DNA of 64,000 nt from Gemmatimonadota bacterium (lineage in GTDB: Bacteria; Gemmatimonadota; Gemmatimonadetes; Gemmatimonadales; GWC2-71-9), in NCBI GenBank assembly GCA_041498715.1, contig JBGQIW010000003.1, forward strand, positions 2,395 through 66,394. The letters are read 5' to 3'. How positions within the stretch are numbered: the stretch's first letter is position 1; each line of letters starts with the position of its first letter. A program made the position numbers and the translations under genes. Under the pieces are notes generated by a model, which was not told the DNA's origin, did no database searches, and saw only the letters and a list, made by a program, of their open reading frames with translations. This document shows, piece by piece, positions 3,450 to 28,206 of the stretch.

Positions 3450-3472
3450 TGTCCTTCGGAATGGAAGGCGGT

Positions 3473-4681
3473 CTACTGCACCGTGTTCATCATATCGAAG
3501 ATCGGCAGGTACATCGCCACCACCATGCCGCCGACCACCACACCGAGCACCACGATCATGATCGGCTCCATCAGCGAGAGGAGCGCGCCCACCGCCACGT
3601 CCACCTCTTCGTCGTAGAAGTCCGCGATCTTCGTCAGCATCTCATCCAGACCACCCGTCTGCTCGCCCACCGCGATCATCGAGATCACCATCGGCGGGAA
3701 CACCTTCGACTTCTCCAGCGGTGCCGCGATCGTCTCGCCGCCGGCGATCGACTGCCGGGACGCCATGACCGCGTCGTGAATGACCATGTTCCCCGCCGTC
3801 TTGGCTGTGATCTCGAGCCCCTCGAGGATCGAAACGCCGGAGGAGATCAACGTGCCCAGCGTCCGGGTGAAGCGGGAGACGGCCGACTTCCGCAGCATAT
3901 CGCCCAGGACCGGGGACTTGAGCAGGAGCGTGTCGATGACCTTCCGGCCGCCCGTGGTGGCGTAGTATTTCCGGATCGCGAAGAAGGTGGCGCCCAGCGC
4001 GCCGAGCACGGCCCACCAGTAGCCGATGAGGAGGTCCGAGAGCCCGACCACGATCCGCGTCGGAAGCGGGAGCTCCAGGTTCACCGACGCGAACATGCTC
4101 TGGAAGACCGGGATCACGAAGATGAGCAGGATGCAGATGGCGATCGCGGCGACCGAGATGATGACGCCGGGGTAGACCATGGCGCCCTTCACCTTGCGCA
4201 TCAGGGCGTCGTTCTTTTCCAGGAAGGTGGCGAGCCGGAGCAGAATCGTGTCCAGGATACCGCCGGCCTCGCCCGCGGACACCATGTTCACGTACAGGTC
4301 GCTGAACGCCTTCGGATGCTTGCTGAACGCGTCGGCGAGTGTGTTGCCCGACTCGACGTCGTAGACCACCGCGCGGGTGACCTCGGCCAGCGCCTTGTTC
4401 TCCGTCTGCTGCGCCAGAATCGTGAGCGACTGGACCAGCGGAAGGCCGGCGTTGATCATCGTCGCGAACTGGCGAGTGAAGATCACGATGTCACGGGTCT
4501 TGATCCGCTGCCCGCCCGGCATCGAGAACTTGATCTGCTTCGGCGCCTCGCGGACGCTCACCAGAATCAGCCGGTTCTTCCGGAGGTAGTTGTTGACCTC
4601 GGCCTGGCTCGGGACGTCGAGCTGGCCCTTCTGGATCTGGCCGTTTGCGGCGTTGCGCGCGGTGTATTCGAACATCGGCAT
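3473..4681 (-). CDS. pilC: Type IV pilus platform protein (T2SS F family)
   Basis: FTRQFATMINAGLPL, GEAGGILD and GEQTGGLDEML motifs; follows pilB-pilT. Confidence 0.93.
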   Translation of the reverse strand: MPMFEYTARNAANGQIQKGQLDVPSQAEVNNYLRKNRLILVSVREAPKQIKFSMPGGQRIKTRDIVIFTRQFATMINAGLPLVQSLTILAQQTENKALAEVTRAVVYDVESGNTLADAFSKHPKAFSDLYVNMVSAGEAGGILDTILLRLATFLEKNDALMRKVKGAMVYPGVIISVAAIAICILLIFVIPVFQSMFASVNLELPLPTRIVVGLSDLLIGYWWAVLGALGATFFAIRKYYATTGGRKVIDTLLLKSPVLGDMLRKSAVSRFTRTLGTLISSGVSILEGLEITAKTAGNMVIHDAVMASRQSIAGGETIAAPLEKSKVFPPMVISMIAVGEQTGGLDEMLTKIADFYDEEVDVAVGALLSLMEPIMIVVLGVVVGGMVVAMYLPIFDMMNTVQ

Positions 4682-4699
4682 CGGTCGGTCTCCTTGGTC

Positions 4700-5836
4700 C
4701 TAGCGCCGGGTGGCCCCGGCAGCGCGGAACGGCTTCTCGCCGACCGTGGGAATGTCCTGTTCCTCCATCGGCCGCTGGCCGATCATCCGGAGGAACTCGT
4801 TCGGGTCGCCCGAGACCCGAAGACAATCGTCCTCGGTCACCTCACGCGCCATGTAGAGCTGGTACAGCGAGTCGTTCATCGTCTGCATGCCGAACTTCTT
4901 ACCGGATTGCATCGCCGAGTAGATCTGGTGGATCTTCTCGTCGCGGATCAGCGCGCGGATGGCCGGCGTCGCCACCATGATCTCCATTGCCATCACCCGC
5001 CCCCGCCCCTTGGCCTTGGGCAGCAGGGTCTGGGTCATCACGCCCTCGAGCACGAAGGCCAGCTGCGCCCGCACCTGCGACTGCTGGTTGTGCGGGAACA
5101 CGTCGATGATGCGGTTGATCGACTCGGCAGCCGAATTGGTGTGGAGCGTCGCGAGGGCCAGGTGGCCGGTCTCCGCGATCGTGAGCGCCGCGGCGATCGT
5201 CTCCAGGTCGCGCATCTCGCCGACCAGGATTACGTCCGGGTCCTCACGCAACGCGTACTTGAGCGCGGTGGAGAAGTTCTTCGTGTCGGTCCCCACCTCG
5301 CGCTGGTTGACGATGCAGCCCTGGTGCCGGTGGATGAACTCGATCGGGTCCTCCACCGTGATGATGTGCCCCTTCCGCTCCTTGTTGATCTTGTCGATCA
5401 TCGCCGCCAGGGTGGTGGACTTGCCCGACCCCGTCGGCCCCGTCACCAGAATCAGACCCCGCGGCCGCTCCGCGAGCTTGGCCACGATCGGGGGAAGCCC
5501 CAAGTCCTGGAAGGTTCGCACATTGAAGGGAATCATGCGGATTACCATGGCCACGCAGCCCCGCTGTTTGAACACGTTGCCGCGGAACCGGGCCAAATTC
5601 TGGATCCCGAAGCTAAAGTCCAGCTCGTCTTCGGTTTCGAACCGCTTTTTCTGATTCTCGGTCAGGACCGAATAGGCCAGCTGGAGCGTGTCCTTGGCCG
5701 TGAGGACCTCGGGCGCGGAGCCGTCGGTCATCTCCCCGTCCACCCGGAGCTTAGGCCGCTCCCCGGCGGTGACGTGGAGGTCTGACGCCTGCTTCTCGAT
5801 CATTTCCTCGAGCAGCGCGCGCAAATTGACGGTCAT
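4700..5836 (-). CDS. pilT: Type IV pilus retraction ATPase
   Basis: GPTGSGKST, EDPIE, LREDPDVILVGEMRD and AIRALIRD motifs. Confidence 0.95.
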   Translation of the reverse strand: MTVNLRALLEEMIEKQASDLHVTAGERPKLRVDGEMTDGSAPEVLTAKDTLQLAYSVLTENQKKRFETEDELDFSFGIQNLARFRGNVFKQRGCVAMVIRMIPFNVRTFQDLGLPPIVAKLAERPRGLILVTGPTGSGKSTTLAAMIDKINKERKGHIITVEDPIEFIHRHQGCIVNQREVGTDTKNFSTALKYALREDPDVILVGEMRDLETIAAALTIAETGHLALATLHTNSAAESINRIIDVFPHNQQSQVRAQLAFVLEGVMTQTLLPKAKGRGRVMAMEIMVATPAIRALIRDEKIHQIYSAMQSGKKFGMQTMNDSLYQLYMAREVTEDDCLRVSGDPNEFLRMIGQRPMEEQDIPTVGEKPFRAAGATRR

Positions 5837-20498: not shown

Positions 20499-21671
20499 TC
20501 AGCCGCGCGGGGTGATCAGCTCTCGCTGCGGCTCGCGCGGAGTGACGACCGGGCCTTCGGGTCCCCAGAACATGTTCACCTCACTCCGGATGCCGAACTC
20601 GCCCGGCAGGTAGACACCGGGCTCGACAGAGAAGCCGATCCCCGGGCCCAGCAAGCGATCGTCGTGCGTCTCGTAGTCATCCAGATGAGGACCCGAGCCG
20701 TGGAGGTCCCGGTCGATCGAATGCCCGGTCCGGTGTACGAACCACTGGCCGAACCCGGCGCCCTCGATCACCGCCCGGGCGGCGCGGTCACCCTCGAACC
20801 CGGCGATCGGTCGGCCGGCGCGCGCGGCGTCGCGAATCGCTGCGATGGCCGCGTCCCGGGCGTCGCGCACCACGGTCCACACTTCCCTGACGCGGGCCGG
20901 CGGGTCGGTGCCGGCGAAGCCCATCCACGTCTGATCGGCGGAGACTCCTGCGTCCGGCGCCCCCCACAGATCCAGCAGCACTACCTGCCCCGCCGCGAGC
21001 GTCGCGTCCCGCCCCGCGATCGGCTCGTAATGCGGGGTCGCCGCGTTGGCGCCGAAGGCGACGATCGGCGGATGCTCGAACGCGAGCCCGTGCGAGCGCA
21101 ACGCCTCCACCACCCGCTCCTGCACCGCCGATTCCGTCGTCCCGGGCTCGCGAACCACCCGGGCCAGCTCGCTGCGGGCCACGGCGGCAATTGTCTCCGC
21201 CGCGGCGACGTGTCCGGCGATTTCAGCGGCATTCCAGCGTGCGGCAAAGCGGGAGACGAGCGGACCCGAGGGAACGACACGCGCGCCAAGGCGGCGGATC
21301 AGCTCCACGACACCGAATGGAACGCGGTCGAGATAGGGCACCGCGTCTTCGGGCGATATCTCCATCGCGAGCGTGCGTCCCGCGACCAGCGACGCGAGCG
21401 CCGCATGCAGCTCCTCCCAGCGGGCATAGGGCACTACGCGCCCGGGGAAGCCATCCACACCTTGCAGCTCGATCCGGTGCGCCACGGCGACCGGCTCGCC
21501 TTCGCGCGGCAACAGCACGAAGAGTCGCCGCGTCCCCATGCCGCCGACGCCGAGCACCCGTGCGGCCACGGGGTTGACCCCGCGGAAGTCGTACAGGAGC
21601 CACCCGTCCGCACCAGCCTCGTCCAGCGCCGCCCTGAGCGCCGTGCGGTCCACCCCCGCGAGCGGGCTCAC
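20499..21671 (-). CDS. M24 family Xaa-Pro aminopeptidase
   Basis: HRTGHSI, FSVEPGVY and GIRSE motifs; GTGA overlap start. Confidence 0.9.
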   Translation of the reverse strand: MSPLAGVDRTALRAALDEAGADGWLLYDFRGVNPVAARVLGVGGMGTRRLFVLLPREGEPVAVAHRIELQGVDGFPGRVVPYARWEELHAALASLVAGRTLAMEISPEDAVPYLDRVPFGVVELIRRLGARVVPSGPLVSRFAARWNAAEIAGHVAAAETIAAVARSELARVVREPGTTESAVQERVVEALRSHGLAFEHPPIVAFGANAATPHYEPIAGRDATLAAGQVVLLDLWGAPDAGVSADQTWMGFAGTDPPARVREVWTVVRDARDAAIAAIRDAARAGRPIAGFEGDRAARAVIEGAGFGQWFVHRTGHSIDRDLHGSGPHLDDYETHDDRLLGPGIGFSVEPGVYLPGEFGIRSEVNMFWGPEGPVVTPREPQRELITPRG

Positions 21672-22339
21672 TCGTAGTCTCCCGCGCGGTGGGCACGCCA
21701 GAGGCAGGCCTGATCGCCTCGCCCTTCGCAATGCTCGTGGACCATGGTGCCCTCGAAGCTGACGAGACTCCGCAGGAGCTCTCCGTAGGCGGCGCCGTAG
21801 AAGGCGCAGGCGCTGCCGTCGGGAATCGCGCTCACGGAGAGCGGGCGCAGCATGCGAACCTCCGGATCGGGTCCCTGGGCCAGCTCGCCGCGGAAGTAGG
21901 TCGCGGCCAGCCGCCGCGCGGCACGCCGGGCGAGCCGCTGGCCCAGCGCCGAGGGAGAGACCTTCACCAGTGCGCGGGACCCGCCGCTCGCCCGCACGGC
22001 GTAGCGCGCGGCGCGGCGGCCCGCATCGGCGAACACCAGCGGCGCGTCGGGCCGCCGGCCGACCAGCCGGAGCACCGAGACCAGCTCGTCCTCCGTGACG
22101 TTACCCTCCCGGTCGGCCGCCTGGCGGTAGCGATCGATCTGCGCCGCGACGGTGTCGCTCAGCCCGAGGCGGCGCGACACGATATCCTTCGCCATCACTT
22201 CGAGCCCGTCCTCGACCGGCGTGTCGAGGTTCCGGAGCGCTTCCAGCAGGCTCAAGGGGAGAAACGCGGGAATCGGTGGTGAGTCGGGCACGGGGGTGGG
22301 GGCGCGGGCGCGTCCAGACTGCGAGACGGGGCGGAACAT
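21668..22339 (-). CDS. Hypothetical protein with C-terminal V4R-like domain; start uncertain (22291 or 22339)
   Basis: C.FY.....L...H..C...GD..C.W pattern. Confidence 0.6.
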   Translation of the reverse strand: MFRPVSQSGRARAPTPVPDSPPIPAFLPLSLLEALRNLDTPVEDGLEVMAKDIVSRRLGLSDTVAAQIDRYRQAADREGNVTEDELVSVLRLVGRRPDAPLVFADAGRRAARYAVRASGGSRALVKVSPSALGQRLARRAARRLAATYFRGELAQGPDPEVRMLRPLSVSAIPDGSACAFYGAAYGELLRSLVSFEGTMVHEHCEGRGDQACLWRAHRAGDYE

Positions 22340-22405
22340 AGCCGGAGGACCGCAAGCCATCCAGGGGGTCCTTGCGCGAGGGGACTGGCCTGGGAACATT
22401 GCGGC

Positions 22406-22984
22406 ATGACCGACCCTGCACCCGACCGGAGTGCGTTCGAGGCGGAGGTCCTTCCGCAGCTCGACAGCCTCTACCGGCTGGCACTCCGGCTCACGACGGA
22501 CCCGAGCAGGGCGGAAGACCTGGTGCAGGACACGGTGCTCAAGGCCTTCCGCTCCTGGCAGCGCTTCCAGCCCGGAACCAACATCCGCAGCTGGCTGTTC
22601 ACGATCTTGCGGAACACGTTCATCAACGACTACCGCCGCCGGCAGCGGGAGCCGATCGCGATGGACTTAGACGCCGTCGAGCCGCATGCCGTCTCCCGGG
22701 CGGCGCAAGACGAGGACCCGGAGGGGGCGTTCTTCTCGCAGATCGTGGACGCCAAGGTCCTCGGCGCAATCGACGCACTGCCAGAGGAGTTTCGCGAGGT
22801 GCTGGTGCTGAGCGATATCGAGAACATGAGCTACGCGGACATCGCCGAGGTTCTCGGCGTCCCGGTGGGAACGGTCAAGTCGCGCCTGTTCCGCGCGCGC
22901 CGTCAGCTCCAGGGGGTGCTCTACGACCACGCTGTGGAAATGGGCTACATCAGGGCGCGAGATCGTGCGCCGGCCAAGCAGTAG
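22406..22984 (+). CDS. ECF sigma-70 factor (SigH/SigR-like)
   Basis: AEDLVQDT, FQPGTN..SWLFTILRN and GTVKSRLFRAR motifs. Confidence 0.93.
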   Translation: MTDPAPDRSAFEAEVLPQLDSLYRLALRLTTDPSRAEDLVQDTVLKAFRSWQRFQPGTNIRSWLFTILRNTFINDYRRRQREPIAMDLDAVEPHAVSRAAQDEDPEGAFFSQIVDAKVLGAIDALPEEFREVLVLSDIENMSYADIAEVLGVPVGTVKSRLFRARRQLQGVLYDHAVEMGYIRARDRAPAKQ

Positions 22985-23002: not shown

Positions 23003-23248
23003 ATGGCGGGCGGACCGAACTGCCGCGAGGCATTGGCGCTCCTGCAGGACTACCTCAAGCAGGAGCTGACGCCCGAGCTCGAAGCCAAGATCACGAGCCA
23101 TATCCAGAAGTGCCGGCCGTGCTTCGCCAACCTCCAGTTCGAGCGCGGGTTCCTCGAAATGCTGGAGCGAAAGGCCAAAGGGCAGTGCTGCCCTGATCGG
23201 CTCCGCAACCGCATCCTCGCCGAGCTCCGCGACGCGCCCGACGCCTAG
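23003..23248 (+). CDS. Zinc-binding anti-sigma factor (zf-HC2/ZAS)
   Basis: N-terminal Cys plus HIQKCRPC (HxxxCxxC); adjacent to the ECF sigma. Confidence 0.88.
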   Translation: MAGGPNCREALALLQDYLKQELTPELEAKITSHIQKCRPCFANLQFERGFLEMLERKAKGQCCPDRLRNRILAELRDAPDA

Positions 23249-23268: not shown

Positions 23269-24051
23269 GTGTCCACAGCGCTGGCCGTCGTGCTCGCCGC
23301 GGGGTTCGCGGCGGCGGGGTGGCGTGCCGGCGCCCTGACCGGGACGGGCGCCCTGGCGGCGACCCTCGTCGGCACAGCCGTCCTCACGAACGCCGGATGG
23401 CCGGGGGCGGCCGTCCTCGGCGCTTTCTTCGTCTCGAGCAGCGGGGTGTCCCGGGTCCGGCCCCCCGCGCCAGCCGTGGGCGACGCCAAGGGAGACCGCC
23501 GCGACCACTGGCAAGTCCTCGCCAACGGTGGCCCGGCTGCCCTGGGCGCGCTGCTCGCGCGCGACCAGCCAACCCTCGCGCTCTGGACCACGACTGCCAG
23601 CCTGGCGGCAGCGGCGGCCGACACCTGGGCCACCTCGATCGGTGCATGGAGCCGATCCATGCCGCGTCACCTGCTCACCTGGCGGCCGGTACCTCCCGGC
23701 ACGAGCGGGGGCATCACGCCGTACGGTTGCCTGGGGGCTGCTGGCGGCGCCCTGCTGGTGGCCGGCACAGGAGCGTTGGCCGGTCACGATCCGCGGCTCT
23801 GGGCTCTCGCTGCAATAGGTTTCGGGGGGATGGTCGTCGACTCGGCCCTCGGCGCCACCGCGCAGGGCCGCTTTCGCTGCGGGGCGTGCGGCGAACCCTC
23901 GGAGTGGCGGGTTCACCGCTGCGGCGCGGTCACGATCCGCGAAGGAGGCTGGCATTGGCTGGACAACGATGGGGTGAACGCTCTCGCCACCACGCTCGCC
24001 GCGCTGGCCGGCTGGGTCTCATGGGCATGGCTCTCGGCCGGGTGGCGCTAG
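23269..24051 (+). CDS. DUF92 (TMEM19-like) membrane protein
   Basis: RD..QVLANGG, ADTWATSIG, PPGTSGGIT, DS.LGA..Q and NDGVN motifs. Confidence 0.88.
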   Translation: MSTALAVVLAAGFAAAGWRAGALTGTGALAATLVGTAVLTNAGWPGAAVLGAFFVSSSGVSRVRPPAPAVGDAKGDRRDHWQVLANGGPAALGALLARDQPTLALWTTTASLAAAAADTWATSIGAWSRSMPRHLLTWRPVPPGTSGGITPYGCLGAAGGALLVAGTGALAGHDPRLWALAAIGFGGMVVDSALGATAQGRFRCGACGEPSEWRVHRCGAVTIREGGWHWLDNDGVNALATTLAALAGWVSWAWLSAGWR

Positions 24052-24110
24052 CCGGGAGCTTCAGCCCCACCCCTACGGCCGATGCGACCACCGGCGGGCT
24101 GGCGTGATCG

Positions 24111-25328
24111 ATGAGTGCCCTTCTGGCCGACGTGCTGATCGTGGGAGCCGGGCCGGCGGGCAGCGCCAGCGCGGCGCTGCTCGCCCGGCGCGGCCTCGAG
24201 GTCGTGGTGATCGACCGGGCCGCGTTCCCCCGGGACAAGGCGTGCTCCGAGTACCTGAGCCCCGAGGGGGTCCGGGTGCTCGAGCGCCTCGGTGTCGTTG
24301 GCGATCTCGAGCGCGCAGGCGCGCGCGCGCTCGCCGGAACAGTCGTGCGGGGCCCGCGAGGCGCGCGACTGCACGGCCTCTTCGCCGAAGCCCGCCCGGT
24401 CCCCGGTCGCGTCACGGGCCTCTCCGTGCCGCGGTCGGTGCTCGACGCCCGGCTGGTCGCTGCCGCCCGCGACGCCGGGGCTCGGGTGCTCGAGCGGACG
24501 GTGCTGGAGGAGCTGCTGTATGAGGATGCCGCGGTGGCAGGCGCCGTCGTCCGCGGACCCGAAGGCCGGCGCCTCATCCGCGCACGGCTCACCATCGGCG
24601 CCGACGGGCTCCGCTCGCTGGTAGCCCGACGCCTCGGCGTGCGGGGGAGCGGTGGTCGTCCTCGGCGGTTCGCATTCGTCGCGCATGTCGAAGGCGTCCC
24701 GGATCTTGCCGACTCGGCCGAGATGCATGTCGCAGCGGACGGGTACGTCGGGCTCAACCAGGTGGGCCAGGACCTTGCCAACGTGGCGCTCGTGGTCCCG
24801 GCGGCGCTGTTAGCCGCGGCCCGTGGCCGCGCGGCCGACTTCTTCTTCGAGCGATTGGAACGGTTCCCCGGCGTGCGAGGCCGCGTGGACCGCAGCCGCA
24901 TCCGCCGCGGCCTGCTCACGACCGGGCCCTTCGCGGCGTGGTCGCGCCGCACGATTGCACCCGGCGCTCTTCTCGTGGGCGATGCGGCCGATTTCTTCGA
25001 CCCGTTCACGGGCGAGGGAATTTGTGCGGCGCTACGCGGGTCGGAGCTGGTAGCAGAGCATGCGGGCGCAGCGCTCGAGACGCCGGGAACTGTGGACGTC
25101 CGGCGGCTCGAGCCGTATGCCGCCGCGCGCCGCCGCGCGTTCGCCGGGAAATGGGCGGTGGAAAGATTGATCGGTTACGCCATGGCGTGGCCCGCGCTCT
25201 TCGACCGCGCCGTCGAGCGGCTCGGGCGGCGGGAGGGCATGGCCCACACCCTCATCGGGGTCACCGGTGACTTGATACCGGCCAGCGCGGTTCTGAACCC
25301 CGTGTTTCTCGCCCGGATGGTCCTGTGA
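24111..25328 (+). CDS. FAD-dependent oxidoreductase (geranylgeranyl reductase/FixC-like family)
   Basis: GAGPAGS, FPRDKACSE, GADG and GDAA.FFDPFTGEGI motifs. Confidence 0.88.
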   Translation: MSALLADVLIVGAGPAGSASAALLARRGLEVVVIDRAAFPRDKACSEYLSPEGVRVLERLGVVGDLERAGARALAGTVVRGPRGARLHGLFAEARPVPGRVTGLSVPRSVLDARLVAAARDAGARVLERTVLEELLYEDAAVAGAVVRGPEGRRLIRARLTIGADGLRSLVARRLGVRGSGGRPRRFAFVAHVEGVPDLADSAEMHVAADGYVGLNQVGQDLANVALVVPAALLAAARGRAADFFFERLERFPGVRGRVDRSRIRRGLLTTGPFAAWSRRTIAPGALLVGDAADFFDPFTGEGICAALRGSELVAEHAGAALETPGTVDVRRLEPYAAARRRAFAGKWAVERLIGYAMAWPALFDRAVERLGRREGMAHTLIGVTGDLIPASAVLNPVFLARMVL

Positions 25329-25807
25329 GCATGCCCGACGTGGACGATGCCCAGTTCCGCCAGCTGCTTGGGCGCTTTGCGACGGGCGTCGTGGTGATCA
25401 CCGTGACCGCCCCCGACGGCCGGCCCCACGGCATGACCGCGAACAGCCTCGCCTCCGTCTCACTGCGGCCGCCGCTGGTCTCGCTTGCCGTCGATCACCT
25501 GGCCGAGCTGCACGGGCTCATCACCCGGCTCGACGTGTTCGTCGCCAACGTCCTCTCGAGCCACCAGGAAGCCCTCTCACGGCGCTTCGCGGACCCGCAC
25601 GACGACCGGTTCGACGGCGTGGGCTATTCCGTGAGCCGGAACGGCGGCATCCTGCTGGACGGAGTCCTCGCCCACATCGAGTGCGTGCGCCACGCCCAGA
25701 TGGAGGCGGGCGACCACACCATCGTGATCGGCCGGGTCGTGGGCGGTGCGACCCGCGACGGCCGGCCGCTCCTGTACTACCGCGGCGGCTACGGGACGCT
25801 GGGGTGA
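25325..25807 (+). CDS. Flavin reductase family protein
   Basis: FATGVVVIT, GMTANS..SVSL.PPL, GDH and PLLYYRG motifs. Confidence 0.92.
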   Translation: MSMPDVDDAQFRQLLGRFATGVVVITVTAPDGRPHGMTANSLASVSLRPPLVSLAVDHLAELHGLITRLDVFVANVLSSHQEALSRRFADPHDDRFDGVGYSVSRNGGILLDGVLAHIECVRHAQMEAGDHTIVIGRVVGGATRDGRPLLYYRGGYGTLG

Positions 25808-26508
25808 CCGACGTGCCACTCGCCACGCGCCGGCTCGGCGCCGAGCTGTTCGACGACGCCTCCGGAAGCCCAGCGGCAGTGGAGTTGTCCCTCCGCAACA
25901 TCGCCCGCGCCAACCGCTGGTTCGGCGGAACGGCTGCGCTGTGCTGGGGCCTGGGACGGGCCCTTCGCGGCGTTCCCGCCGGGACCCGGGTCACGCTGCT
26001 CGACGTCGGCACCGGCCTGGGCGATGTTCCCCGGGCGGCCGCGGCGTGGGGCGCGCGGCACGGTATCCACTTGGCGCCGTTCGGGCTCGAGCGCCACCCG
26101 GTGGCCGCCCGGCTCGCCGCCGCGCGCGGGCTGCCGACCGTGGTCGGCTGCGCCGGCGCCCCTCCCGTGTCCGAGAAGAGCGTGGACGTCGTCTCCGTCT
26201 GCATGGTCGCGCATCACTATGAGCCGGACTCCGTCGTCGAGCTGTTCCGCACCTGCGACCGGCTCGCCCGCCGGGCCGTCGTCGTCGCGGACCTGCTGCG
26301 CTCTCCGGTGGCCGCCGCCGCCTGGTGGTGGGGCTCCCGCGCGCTCGGGTTCGATCCGGTGACGATCGAGGACGGCAGGACGTCCATCCGGCGCGGCTTC
26401 ACGACCGGGGAGCTGACGCGGCTGCTCGTGGCGGCGGGCGTGTCGGCCGTGGTGGCGCGCCGCCCAGGCTGGCGGCTGGTCGCGCTCTGGGCACCAGGCA
26501 CAGCCTGA
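25804..26508 (+). CDS. SAM-dependent methyltransferase domain protein
   Basis: LLDVGTGLGD motif I, DG..SIRRGFT; GTGA overlap start. Confidence 0.82.
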   Translation: MTDVPLATRRLGAELFDDASGSPAAVELSLRNIARANRWFGGTAALCWGLGRALRGVPAGTRVTLLDVGTGLGDVPRAAAAWGARHGIHLAPFGLERHPVAARLAAARGLPTVVGCAGAPPVSEKSVDVVSVCMVAHHYEPDSVVELFRTCDRLARRAVVVADLLRSPVAAAAWWWGSRALGFDPVTIEDGRTSIRRGFTTGELTRLLVAAGVSAVVARRPGWRLVALWAPGTA

Positions 26509-26969
26509 TGCGCACCGAAGACCGGCTCTTCATGCGGGCCCCGGTTGCCCGGGTCTTCCAGGCGGCCGCGAACGTGGAGCGGTGGCCCGAGCTGCTGAGC
26601 CACTATCGGTGGGTACGGATGCTCGAGCGGCGGGGCGACGGTGGAATCGTGGAGATGGCCGCGTGGCGCCCGTTCGGGCCGCTCCGGTATCCCACGTGGT
26701 GGGTGTCGGAAATGTGGGTTGACGCAACCAGGCCCGCCGTGCGCTACCGGCACGTGCGCGGCATCACCGCCGGCATGGACGTCGAATGGCGCCTGGAGCC
26801 GGCTTTCGAAGGGACCGACGTGACGATCGTGCACGAGTGGAGCGGGCCGGGCTGGCCCCTGATCAGCCGGCCCGCGGCCGAGTGGGTGATCGGGCCGGTA
26901 TTCGTTCAGGGAATCGCATCGCGCACGCTCGCGGGAATCCGGCGCGAGGTGGAGCGGGCCGATGCCTGA
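26508..26969 (+). CDS. SRPBCC/START-fold polyketide cyclase/aromatase-like protein
   Basis: RAPVARVF....VERWPELL..Y; WVSEM; GMDVEWRLEP. Confidence 0.8.
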   Translation: MRTEDRLFMRAPVARVFQAAANVERWPELLSHYRWVRMLERRGDGGIVEMAAWRPFGPLRYPTWWVSEMWVDATRPAVRYRHVRGITAGMDVEWRLEPAFEGTDVTIVHEWSGPGWPLISRPAAEWVIGPVFVQGIASRTLAGIRREVERADA

Positions 26970-28206
26970 GCCGCGGCGCGTGGTGGTGACCGGCATCGGC
27001 GCGATCACGCCGATCGGCACCGGTGTCGCGGGGCTCTGGAGCGGGCTGCGCGAGCGTCGCTCGGCGGTGCAGTGCGTCACGCGCTTCGACCCAACTCCAT
27101 TCAAGAGCCGGATCGCCGCCCAGGTGAACGACTTCGTCGCCACCGACCATCTCGAGGAGCGCCGGGCTCGGCGGCTGGACCGCTTCGGCCATTTTACCGT
27201 CGCCGCAGCCCGGCTGGCCCTCGCCTACTCGAGCCTCGACCTCGCCCGCGAGAATCCCGACCTCGTCGGCGCGATGATGGGGACCGCGCTCGGCGGTGTG
27301 GCGTTCGCCGAGCACCAGTACCGGGAATATCTCCAGGGCGGGCCCAGGGCGGTGGATCCAACGCTGGCGCTCACAGTCTTCGCCGGCGCGGCCAGCTGCA
27401 ACGTGGCGATCGAGTTCGGGATCAGCGGCCCGAACTCGACCAACGGCATGAGTTGCGCCTCGGGCACCATCGCCATCGGCGAGGCCTTCCGCACGATCGT
27501 CCGCGGCGAGGCCGACACGATGCTGGCGGGAGCGTCGGAGGCGCCGCTTGCGCCGCTCTGCTTCGGCGCGTTCGCGATCATCCGCGCCATGTCCACCAGG
27601 AACGACGACCCGGGCCGCGCCAGCCGCCCCTTCGACCGGGGGCGTGACGGGTTCGTGATGGGCGAGGGCGCCGCCCTGCTCGTCCTGGAAGAGCGGAGCC
27701 GCGCGCTCGCCCGGGGCGCTCCGGTGTACGCGGAGATCTGTGGTTACGGCCTGAGCAACGACGCGTACCACATGACCGCCCCCCGCCCGGACGGGCGCCA
27801 GGCGGCGCGCGCCATGCAGCTCGCGCTTCGAGAGGCGCGCGTCGCGCCGACGGACATCGGGTACATCAACGCGCACGGCTCCTCCACGCCGCTCAACGAC
27901 CCGACCGAGACGTCCTCCATCAAGCAGGTCTTTGGCGACCACGCGTACCGGGTGCCGCTCAGCGGCACGAAGGGGTACTACGGCCACGCCCTGGGCGCGA
28001 GCGGCGCCATCGAGGCCGCCATCTGCGCGCTGTCCCTCCGCCACGGCTGGCTGCCGCCTACGGTCAACCTGGAGAGTCCCGATCCCGCCTGCGACCTGGA
28101 TTACATCCGGGACGACGGCCGGGACGCGAGACCAGAGTTCATGCTGAGCAATTCGTTCGGGTTCGGGGGGATCAACGCGAGCCTGGTGTTCCGCCGGCCG
28201 GAGTGA
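26962..28206 (+). CDS. Beta-ketoacyl synthase (FabF/KS-alpha family)
   Basis: SCASG, NAHGSST and GHALGA (Cys-His-His intact); RPFD..RDGFVMGEG; SNSFGFGG. Confidence 0.92.
   Translation: MPEPRRVVVTGIGAITPIGTGVAGLWSGLRERRSAVQCVTRFDPTPFKSRIAAQVNDFVATDHLEERRARRLDRFGHFTVAAARLALAYSSLDLARENPDLVGAMMGTALGGVAFAEHQYREYLQGGPRAVDPTLALTVFAGAASCNVAIEFGISGPNSTNGMSCASGTIAIGEAFRTIVRGEADTMLAGASEAPLAPLCFGAFAIIRAMSTRNDDPGRASRPFDRGRDGFVMGEGAALLVLEERSRALARGAPVYAEICGYGLSNDAYHMTAPRPDGRQAARAMQLALREARVAPTDIGYINAHGSSTPLNDPTETSSIKQVFGDHAYRVPLSGTKGYYGHALGASGAIEAAICALSLRHGWLPPTVNLESPDPACDLDYIRDDGRDARPEFMLSNSFGFGGINASLVFRRPE

Follow-up and report, generated by a model that had tools for sequence, protein, structure and literature searches.

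The closest described counterparts of the operon reported here are the hierridin genes hidABC of Cyanobium and a planctomycete operon, which share the gene order methyltransferase, oxidoreductase, type III polyketide synthase (PKS) and belong to alkylresorcinol makers (PMC10896814). According to the accessible part of PMC6836626, HidA methylates pentadecylresorcinol and HidB is the proposed hydroxylase of this compound, while resorcinol clusters without an acyl carrier protein (ACP), exemplified by the bartoloside cluster, are thought to borrow one from primary metabolism. For type II PKSs, the accessible text of PMC9006962 describes pairs of a ketosynthase (KS) and a chain-length factor (CLF) in which bulky CLF residues end the tunnel, and names ApeR as the one homodimeric exception. 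Here we describe a six-gene operon in a 64,000-nt stretch of DNA (the window) from a Gemmatimonadales soil/sediment bacterium with an 80% complete genome. Its core is a stand-alone KS coupled to an SRPBCC/START helix-grip protein. This cassette is real, widespread and uncharacterised, and it is a variant of known polyketide systems. Taking all variants of the idea together, we consider it probable that the lone KS and its cyclase-like partner carry out aromatic polyketide chemistry.

A stand-alone KS and an SRPBCC protein are encoded in one coupled operon

The operon genes, and the two regulatory genes located directly 5′ of them on the same strand, are:

22406..22984, plus strand: extracytoplasmic function (ECF) sigma factor, SigH/SigR-like (family scans), likely in the same transcription unit in this lineage
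23003..23248, plus strand: zf-HC2 anti-sigma factor, RsrA-like (family scans), ending 20 nt 5′ of the DUF92 gene
23269..24051, plus strand: DUF92 membrane protein (PF01940, E 2e-54), accessory, typical of Gemmatimonadales
24111..25328, plus strand: flavin adenine dinucleotide (FAD)-dependent oxidoreductase of the geranylgeranyl-reductase/monooxygenase superfamily (PF01494; GG-red-SF below cut-off)
25325..25807, plus strand: flavin reductase (PF01613), accessory; an alternative ATG start is possible two codons downstream
25804..26508, plus strand: S-adenosylmethionine (SAM)-dependent methyltransferase, PRK06202-like (best model PRK06202/NF004851, below cut-off), with motif I intact (LDVGTGLGD)
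26508..26969, plus strand: SRPBCC/START helix-grip protein (PF03364/PF10604), core gene, nearest to polyketide aromatase/cyclases
26962..28206, plus strand: stand-alone elongating KS of its own clade, core gene (TIGR03150 fabF, 515 bits against a cut-off of 494; C165/H305/H342)

The six open reading frames from DUF92 to KS are located where a preliminary description of this DNA had placed them, the overlaps it had read between neighbouring genes (GTGA, GTGA, TGATG and 8 nt) are present, and the KS has the intact Cys-His-His triad that was claimed for it. Contigs of three DNA runs, the best of which may be the source sample, span 30 of 30 bins of the stretch and show zero indels in the six genes. 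Judged from sequence, the oxidoreductase is a predicted ring hydroxylase with a HidB-like role, and a HidA-like role is predicted for the methyltransferase.

The SRPBCC-KS pair is the conserved core

Conservation was assessed in a close-kin set (80 loci, 51 of them well flanked), a broader set (40 stretches, 33 with a family KS) and a metagenome set consisting of the best 80 of 567 loci. All six genes were found together in 51 of 51 well-flanked close-kin loci. In the broader set the SRPBCC gene lies directly 5′ of the KS gene in 33 of 33 loci, accompanied by methyltransferase and oxidoreductase in 32, the remaining contig being cut. Among the 64 metagenome loci with at least 600 nt downstream, a KS is present in 60 and adjacent to the SRPBCC gene in 56; the 32 fully flanked ones contain a KS in 30 cases, a methyltransferase in 23 and an oxidoreductase match in 21 (one halogenase-like). 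The other genes are more restricted: flavin reductase occurs in 29/33 broader and 1/32 metagenome loci, DUF92 in 51/51 close-kin, 28/33 broader and 1/32 metagenome loci, and the ECF sigma factor in 41/51 close-kin versus 6/33 broader loci. These counts identify SRPBCC-KS as the core, methyltransferase and oxidoreductase as its usual partners, and DUF92, flavin reductase and the sigma pair as lineage additions. The co-conservation anticipated in the preliminary description was thus confirmed, with the exception that DUF92, which it had included in the set, is no core part.

A KS copy of at least 62% identity is present in 58 of 61 related genomes, mostly beside a FabF copy of 42-49%. The SRPBCC profile matched 163 of 251 genomes of the phylum (a tally that takes in G190), and the cassette is found in about two thirds of the sampled Gemmatimonadota genomes, including a genome assembled as a single 4.6-Mb contig (G057). 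Relatives found with the SRPBCC protein were labelled Gemmatimonadales or Gemmatimonadota in 79 of 80 loci and Bacillota in one. A profile built from divergent members matched 2675 protein clusters; homologues also carry Chloroflexota labels, atlas look-alike clusters are most frequent in Chloroflexota and Verrucomicrobiota, and the search for the SRPBCC protein on plasmids gave zero matches. Three representatives (P0123, P0117 and P0004) are apparent oxidoreductase-SRPBCC or methyltransferase-SRPBCC fusions, which may be read-through or frameshift artefacts.

CLF and ACP are missing from the cluster

Scans of the window and of the genome agree with the earlier claim that the cluster contains neither CLF nor ACP. 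No ACP gene was found in the window or in 113 loci of the phylum (0/113), and in one of the 80 metagenome loci (L198) a gene with a weak ACP-like match of 23 bits lies about 3 kb away. Likewise, no second KS or CLF gene was present in the window or the 113 phylum loci, where two apparent double-KS loci proved to be one split KS. The sole ACP found in the genome is the acpP gene of a housekeeping fabG-acpP-fabF group on a separate contig (C40). The FabF encoded there is 43% identical to the operon KS and is the only other full-length KS II in this 80% complete genome. The housekeeping genes are thus located elsewhere, and the operon KS is a second copy. On the same contig (L001, G000:C40, 2175-5260) fabF is followed by futalosine-pathway menaquinone-like genes, which we take to be mqnE-, mqnA- and mqnC-like.

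The KS forms a clade of its own on the KSα/CLF side of the FabF split

In every tree built, the KS family formed its own clade (99/99). Holding the KS together with Gemmatimonadota FabF was rejected by the approximately unbiased (AU) test (p-AU 1.5e-5), run here as elsewhere under LG+G4, a model in which long-branch pull is a greater risk than in mixture models. This result and the position of the second copy away from the fab genes rule out that the KS is the housekeeping FabF, in agreement with the non-housekeeping character proposed for it. None of the findings that would have spoken against a separate pathway was made: the KS is not a sole, housekeeping FabF, the gene set is co-conserved, and no match to a characterised biosynthetic gene cluster came up in the open literature.

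The branch that parts the KS family and KSα (plus CLF where included) from all FabFs was recovered repeatedly, with support of Shimodaira-Hasegawa (SH) 97, 99/99, SH 94 (64 rows), 97/98 and 93/99. ApeR fell on the KS-family side of this split in the 97/98 tree, and so did three other KSs in a first, smaller tree based on a quick search. Trees rooted on FabB made the KS family sister to KSα plus CLF (99/99; SH 94; 93/99), and the KS phylogeny with this placement is new here; in the ApeR-rooted tree the sister relation was neither fixed nor removed. Since roots on the KS/CLF branch and on the family's own branch were both retained (p-AU 0.35 and 0.37), an origin before the KS/CLF duplication is favoured only. 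A grouping of the KS family with most FabFs gave p 0.013, the group having been chosen after earlier trees. The trees were built without AntD, highly reducing polyene KS-CLF pairs, DarB and the FabFs of Cyanobacteria, Armatimonadota and most Chloroflexota, and rows were removed between builds on account of run time and long branches. One tree reference was a full type II PKS cluster (didomain SRPBCC, ketoreductase, KS, CLF and ACP) on a plasmid of the alphaproteobacterium Azospirillum brasilense (L325). Many viral contigs from IMG/VR (L258-L297) carry a shorter, divergent (~30% identity) FabF-like ketosynthase.

Residues were compared across 65 family, 20 FabF, 11 KSα and 6 CLF rows. C165, H305, H342, K337 and F401 are invariant in 65/65 family members. 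Of the two segments previously regarded as KSα-like, AHGSST retained this status, its Ser being present in 61/65 family and 11/11 KSα rows against Thr in 20/20 FabF rows; the segment STRNDD..ASRPFD is not specific to KSα, the host FabF carrying STRNDSPETASRPFD at this place. KSα-type residues are A109, S307, I207 and M271, and FabF-type residues are D267, P274, A281 and F399. Compared with E. coli FabF, the acyl-pocket region has Ala for G107 and Pro for A193 in 65/65 members, Leu at the back gate I108, and Phe (F140) in 64/65 members and 6/6 CLFs for I138, a residue that presumably lines the acyl tunnel. The I108-F202 gate of FabF is described in the accessible part of PMC9006962.

The SRPBCC protein resembles polyketide aromatase/cyclases

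In profile searches the SRPBCC protein matched BexL/WhiE-ORFVI/TcmN at 1e-9 to 8e-8, the next protein following at 1e-3. Its predicted model (predicted local distance difference test score 90) gave WhiE-ORFVI, TcmN and ZhuI as the top 8 Foldseek rows (template modelling score 0.78-0.83). Superposition on aromatase/cyclases yielded Z 17.5-20.0 and root-mean-square deviations of 2.1-2.4 over 137-148 residues, ZhuI reaching Z 20.0 and 2.1 over 148 residues; the model thus has the helix-grip fold and internal pocket of these enzymes. Profile, Foldseek and Z thus uphold the START/TcmN-type cyclase likeness suggested earlier. Across 88 representatives sharing <50% identity, W26, H32, Y33, R34, M50, R54, W65, H82, M90, W94 and H109 are kept in 79-88 sequences, the near-invariant polar positions being Y33 (87), R54 (79), H82 (86), H109 (80) and W65 (88). 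This conservation fits a catalyst with a fixed substrate. RatA toxin labels, which were attached automatically to SRPBCC homologues, were rejected. A complex prediction with two KS chains and the SRPBCC protein scored 0.01, which carries no weight for or against an interaction.

A CLF occurs in only one of the 80 metagenome loci (L223, 7001-9612), where a family SRPBCC gene lies directly 5′ of a true KSα plus CLF pair; the KS in this locus is a different, KSα-type protein. Its relatives are named Ktedonobacterales, and the contig is Ktedonobacteria-like and holds a halogenase-like flavoprotein. A type II PKS is known from Ktedonobacter racemifer (bioRxiv 10.1101/2020.05.18.102780).

The SRPBCC-KS pair shares a slot with type III PKS

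The methyltransferase family NF004851 was matched in 179 of 251 genomes of the phylum at a loose threshold. Twenty of its loci, picked for divergent or high-scoring copies, were compared. Four showed the order methyltransferase-oxidoreductase-type III PKS (L123-L126), five the order methyltransferase-oxidoreductase-SRPBCC-KS (L131, L133, L135, L137 and L138) and one the order of the window; two more combined type III PKS and methyltransferase (bringing the loci with type III PKS to 6/20), seven had methyltransferase and oxidoreductase with no synthase nearby, and one had the methyltransferase alone. Four of the seven synthase-less loci belong to genomes with the SRPBCC gene elsewhere. The window oxidoreductase is 28-35% identical to its homologues adjoining type III PKS in L123-L126, and for the methyltransferase and oxidoreductase against the pair adjoining type III PKS in the same phylum the range is 26-35%. 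A FastTree analysis nested one type III PKS-linked methyltransferase with a KS-linked one. An SRPBCC match is missing from five of the six genomes that have type III PKS beside the methyltransferase, and the two of these that were checked are also without a family-grade KS. Two of the SRPBCC-less genomes belong to a genus in which the three other members sampled do have the SRPBCC gene; as kin are not independent, the exclusion pattern is suggestive only. No type III PKS was found in the window's cluster or in the 80% complete genome, which gave a FabH-like match only.

As the SRPBCC-KS pair stands where other loci have the type III PKS, its product is best read as phenolic and alkylresorcinol-like, in line with what had been proposed from the sequence. 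Specifically, KS and START protein could be a two-protein stand-in for type III PKS that forms an alkylresorcinol-type ring, which is then methylated and hydroxylated; we give this version somewhat less than an even chance. A KS homodimer would take an acyl group from housekeeping AcpP and add about three malonyl-AcpP units with no reduction. This would be iterative, unreduced extension on a borrowed AcpP; the cluster contains no ketoreductase, dehydratase, CLF or ACP gene. The SRPBCC protein would bind the short poly-beta-ketone, fold it and aromatise it, probably by means of Arg54, His82, His109 and Tyr33 in place of the canonical Arg69. The methyltransferase and the FAD oxidoreductase would finally modify the ring, and the resulting lipid would be hierridin-like or an alkyl(hydro)quinone.

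Alternative readings

Several observations weigh against an alkylresorcinol-type pathway. Both score and fold place the KS closest to FabF, and its diagnostic columns are FabF-type in four cases versus KSα-type in three. Its reshaped acyl pocket, as read from the sequence, might refuse a long acyl starter. Helix-grip proteins that are not cyclases reach Z values on a par with those of the cyclases (TTHA0849 19.2, thebaine synthase 18.8). An Arg, R69 in TcmN, is called critical in all active aromatase/cyclases in the accessible part of a review (PMC12664062), from which the cyclase residue roles used here were taken. Its equivalent is Met69 in the window protein, and Gln in 54 and Met in 15 of the 88 relatives. 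We therefore do not file the SRPBCC protein as a TcmN/WhiE/ZhuI family member; Arg54 together with His82/His109 may substitute for the missing Arg. In the FastTree analysis the oxidoreductases that neighbour type III PKS fall into a group of their own with long branches, indicating parallel operons and not a recent swap; the hidABC likeness was judged from homologues within the phylum and from gene order. One genome has both the type III PKS and the SRPBCC system, three genomes (94-96% complete), those of the remaining synthase-less loci, have methyltransferase and oxidoreductase with neither synthase, and 5/5 loci of one genus are without the methyltransferase. Finally, while gene content, coupling, conservation, fold, clade identity and the slot shared with type III PKS are shown here, chemistry and product are inferred throughout.

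A bolder proposal takes the system as a CLF-free and ACP-free aromatic PKS. Its homodimeric KS would have split off from the stem of the type II PKSs ahead of the duplication into KS and CLF, would set its own chain length, as suggested by the combination of KSα-type residues with the CLF-type Phe140, and would borrow the fatty-acid ACP, aided by a TcmN-like cyclase with a different catalytic set. In this full form we regard it as rather unlikely.

It is less likely still that the KS and the cyclase use a short starter to make a small phenol, similar to orsellinate or methylresorcinol, and that prenylation, methylation and hydroxylation then turn this phenol into a quinone or chromanol, with DUF92 supplying the prenyl diphosphate. 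The acyl pocket, remodelled relative to E. coli FabF, would suit this route, DUF92 accompanies the cassette in 51/51 close-kin loci, and UbiA prenyltransferases flank it in 4 metagenome loci (L175, L195, L206 and L211). We take DUF92 to be the counterpart of the plant phytyl-phosphate kinase VTE6, which a literature check did not confirm. On the other hand, the scan of neighbour frames, which covered 43 of the 88 candidates, a further 4 chosen by eye and 3 taken from relatives, gave UbiA in only 4 of 47 metagenome frames, the window cluster has none, and DUF92 is missing from 31/32 metagenome loci.

Similarly improbable is a non-aromatic role in lipid remodelling, in which the KS would be specialised for elongating fatty acids, the SRPBCC protein would carry lipids as Coq10-like proteins do, and the flavoenzyme would reduce double bonds in the manner of geranylgeranyl reductases. 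The KS scores above the fabF cut-off and has only FabF among its best structural matches, GG-red-SF is the best model for the oxidoreductase, and the SRPBCC protein lacks Arg69 and has homologues that sources often label RatA/Coq10-like. However, the SRPBCC protein keeps its invariant polar residues and resembles WhiE/TcmN more closely than it does 1t17, which is Coq10-like; a member of its family precedes a real KSα-CLF pair, and the methyltransferase and oxidoreductase families accompany alkylresorcinol-type type III PKS elsewhere.

In DarAB the aromatase DarA is a flavin oxidase of another fold than the helix grip, whereas the SRPBCC protein has the cofactor-free helix-grip fold. Although a KS and aromatase pair without ACP is reminiscent of the bartoloside cluster, a DarAB-like head-to-head joining of two acyl chains by the KS, with the SRPBCC protein aromatising a cyclohexanedione to a dialkylresorcinol, is very improbable, and both DarAB membership and the analogy drawn in the preliminary description were rejected on KS class and aromatase fold, since PMC6836626 presents DarB (outside our trees) as a KS class that is separate in phylogeny and no longer elongates, and the operon KS is an elongating FabF-type enzyme with the FabF/KSα Cys-His-His-Lys site.

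Surroundings of the operon

The search for a sigma-70 promoter at the operon was negative. Just 3′ of the KS stop codon, the minus strand has a terminator-like site (4 found versus 1.6 in shuffles), and ccmABC converges on the operon from the downstream side. A divergent gene at 21668-22399 (minus strand) with a weak BchJ/4-vinyl-reductase (V4R-like) match adjoins the operon in 50/51 close-kin loci and possibly encodes a ligand-binding regulator. Two DNA runs have one extra C at position 22317, in its predicted 5′ part; there may be a one-base error in the window, or the gene may start later.

In several relatives (L002, L006, L010, L014, L017 and L041) a small lipoprotein-like gene separates DUF92 and oxidoreductase. 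The corresponding gap in the window is only 59 nt, and a short frame at 24022-24107 contains a PTPT motif that the L002 gene has too, which suggests that a deletion left a remnant of the lipoprotein-like gene here. Four other relatives (L015 at 3468-5048, L019, L021 and L029) have a B12-binding radical SAM gene inserted between the same two genes, possibly for an extra C-methylation step. An aquaporin (MIP) gene lies directly 3′ of the KS in many relatives (L003, L005, L006, L008, L014 and others); the window is without it.

Discussion

We found no description of the SRPBCC-KS cassette in the open literature, most subscription journals and supplements being outside the search. A type II PKS catalogue demanded KS and CLF within 2 kb, as given in the accessible part of PMC10132072, and by this rule could not see a lone-KS system. 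If our reading is true, a lone-KS aromatic synthase has been invisible to KS-CLF catalogues, although it is near-core in Gemmatimonadales and also occurs in other soil phyla. The occurrence of the cassette in about two thirds of the genomes suggests that abundant soil bacteria make a housekeeping-like lipid or quinone that has yet to be described. A link to the origin of the antibiotic-making type II PKSs is plausible; a two-gene, single-KS aromatic synthase would make the transition to these systems testable, and it would offer a very small system for polyketide engineering.

With aromatic type II PKSs the locus shares a Cys-His-His elongating KS on the KSα/CLF side of the FabF split in every broad tree, and a translationally coupled, cyclase-like protein with the helix-grip fold of TcmN, WhiE and ZhuI; in one case a member of this protein's own SRPBCC family precedes a KSα-CLF pair. 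It differs in that CLF and ACP are missing, the cyclase is without Arg69, and the KS stays outside the KSα clade in all trees and keeps the FabF-type NSFGFGG motif. FabF (KAS II) itself is similar in fold and at 42-48% identity, and the TIGR03150 cut-off is passed, but the operon KS is a second copy off the fab genes, in its own clade and with a remodelled pocket. With DarAB/BrtCD the cassette has in common a KS with an aromatising partner that may borrow an ACP from primary metabolism, whereas KS class, aromatase fold and chemistry all differ. The hidABC and planctomycete operons likewise are small, have no ACP and combine a SAM methyltransferase, an FAD oxidoreductase and a condensing system, and many loci of the cassette agree with them in gene order. 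In contrast to them, the cassette has a FabF-type KS and a START protein in place of the type III PKS, and in Gemmatimonadales the genes are reordered, with flavin reductase and DUF92 added.

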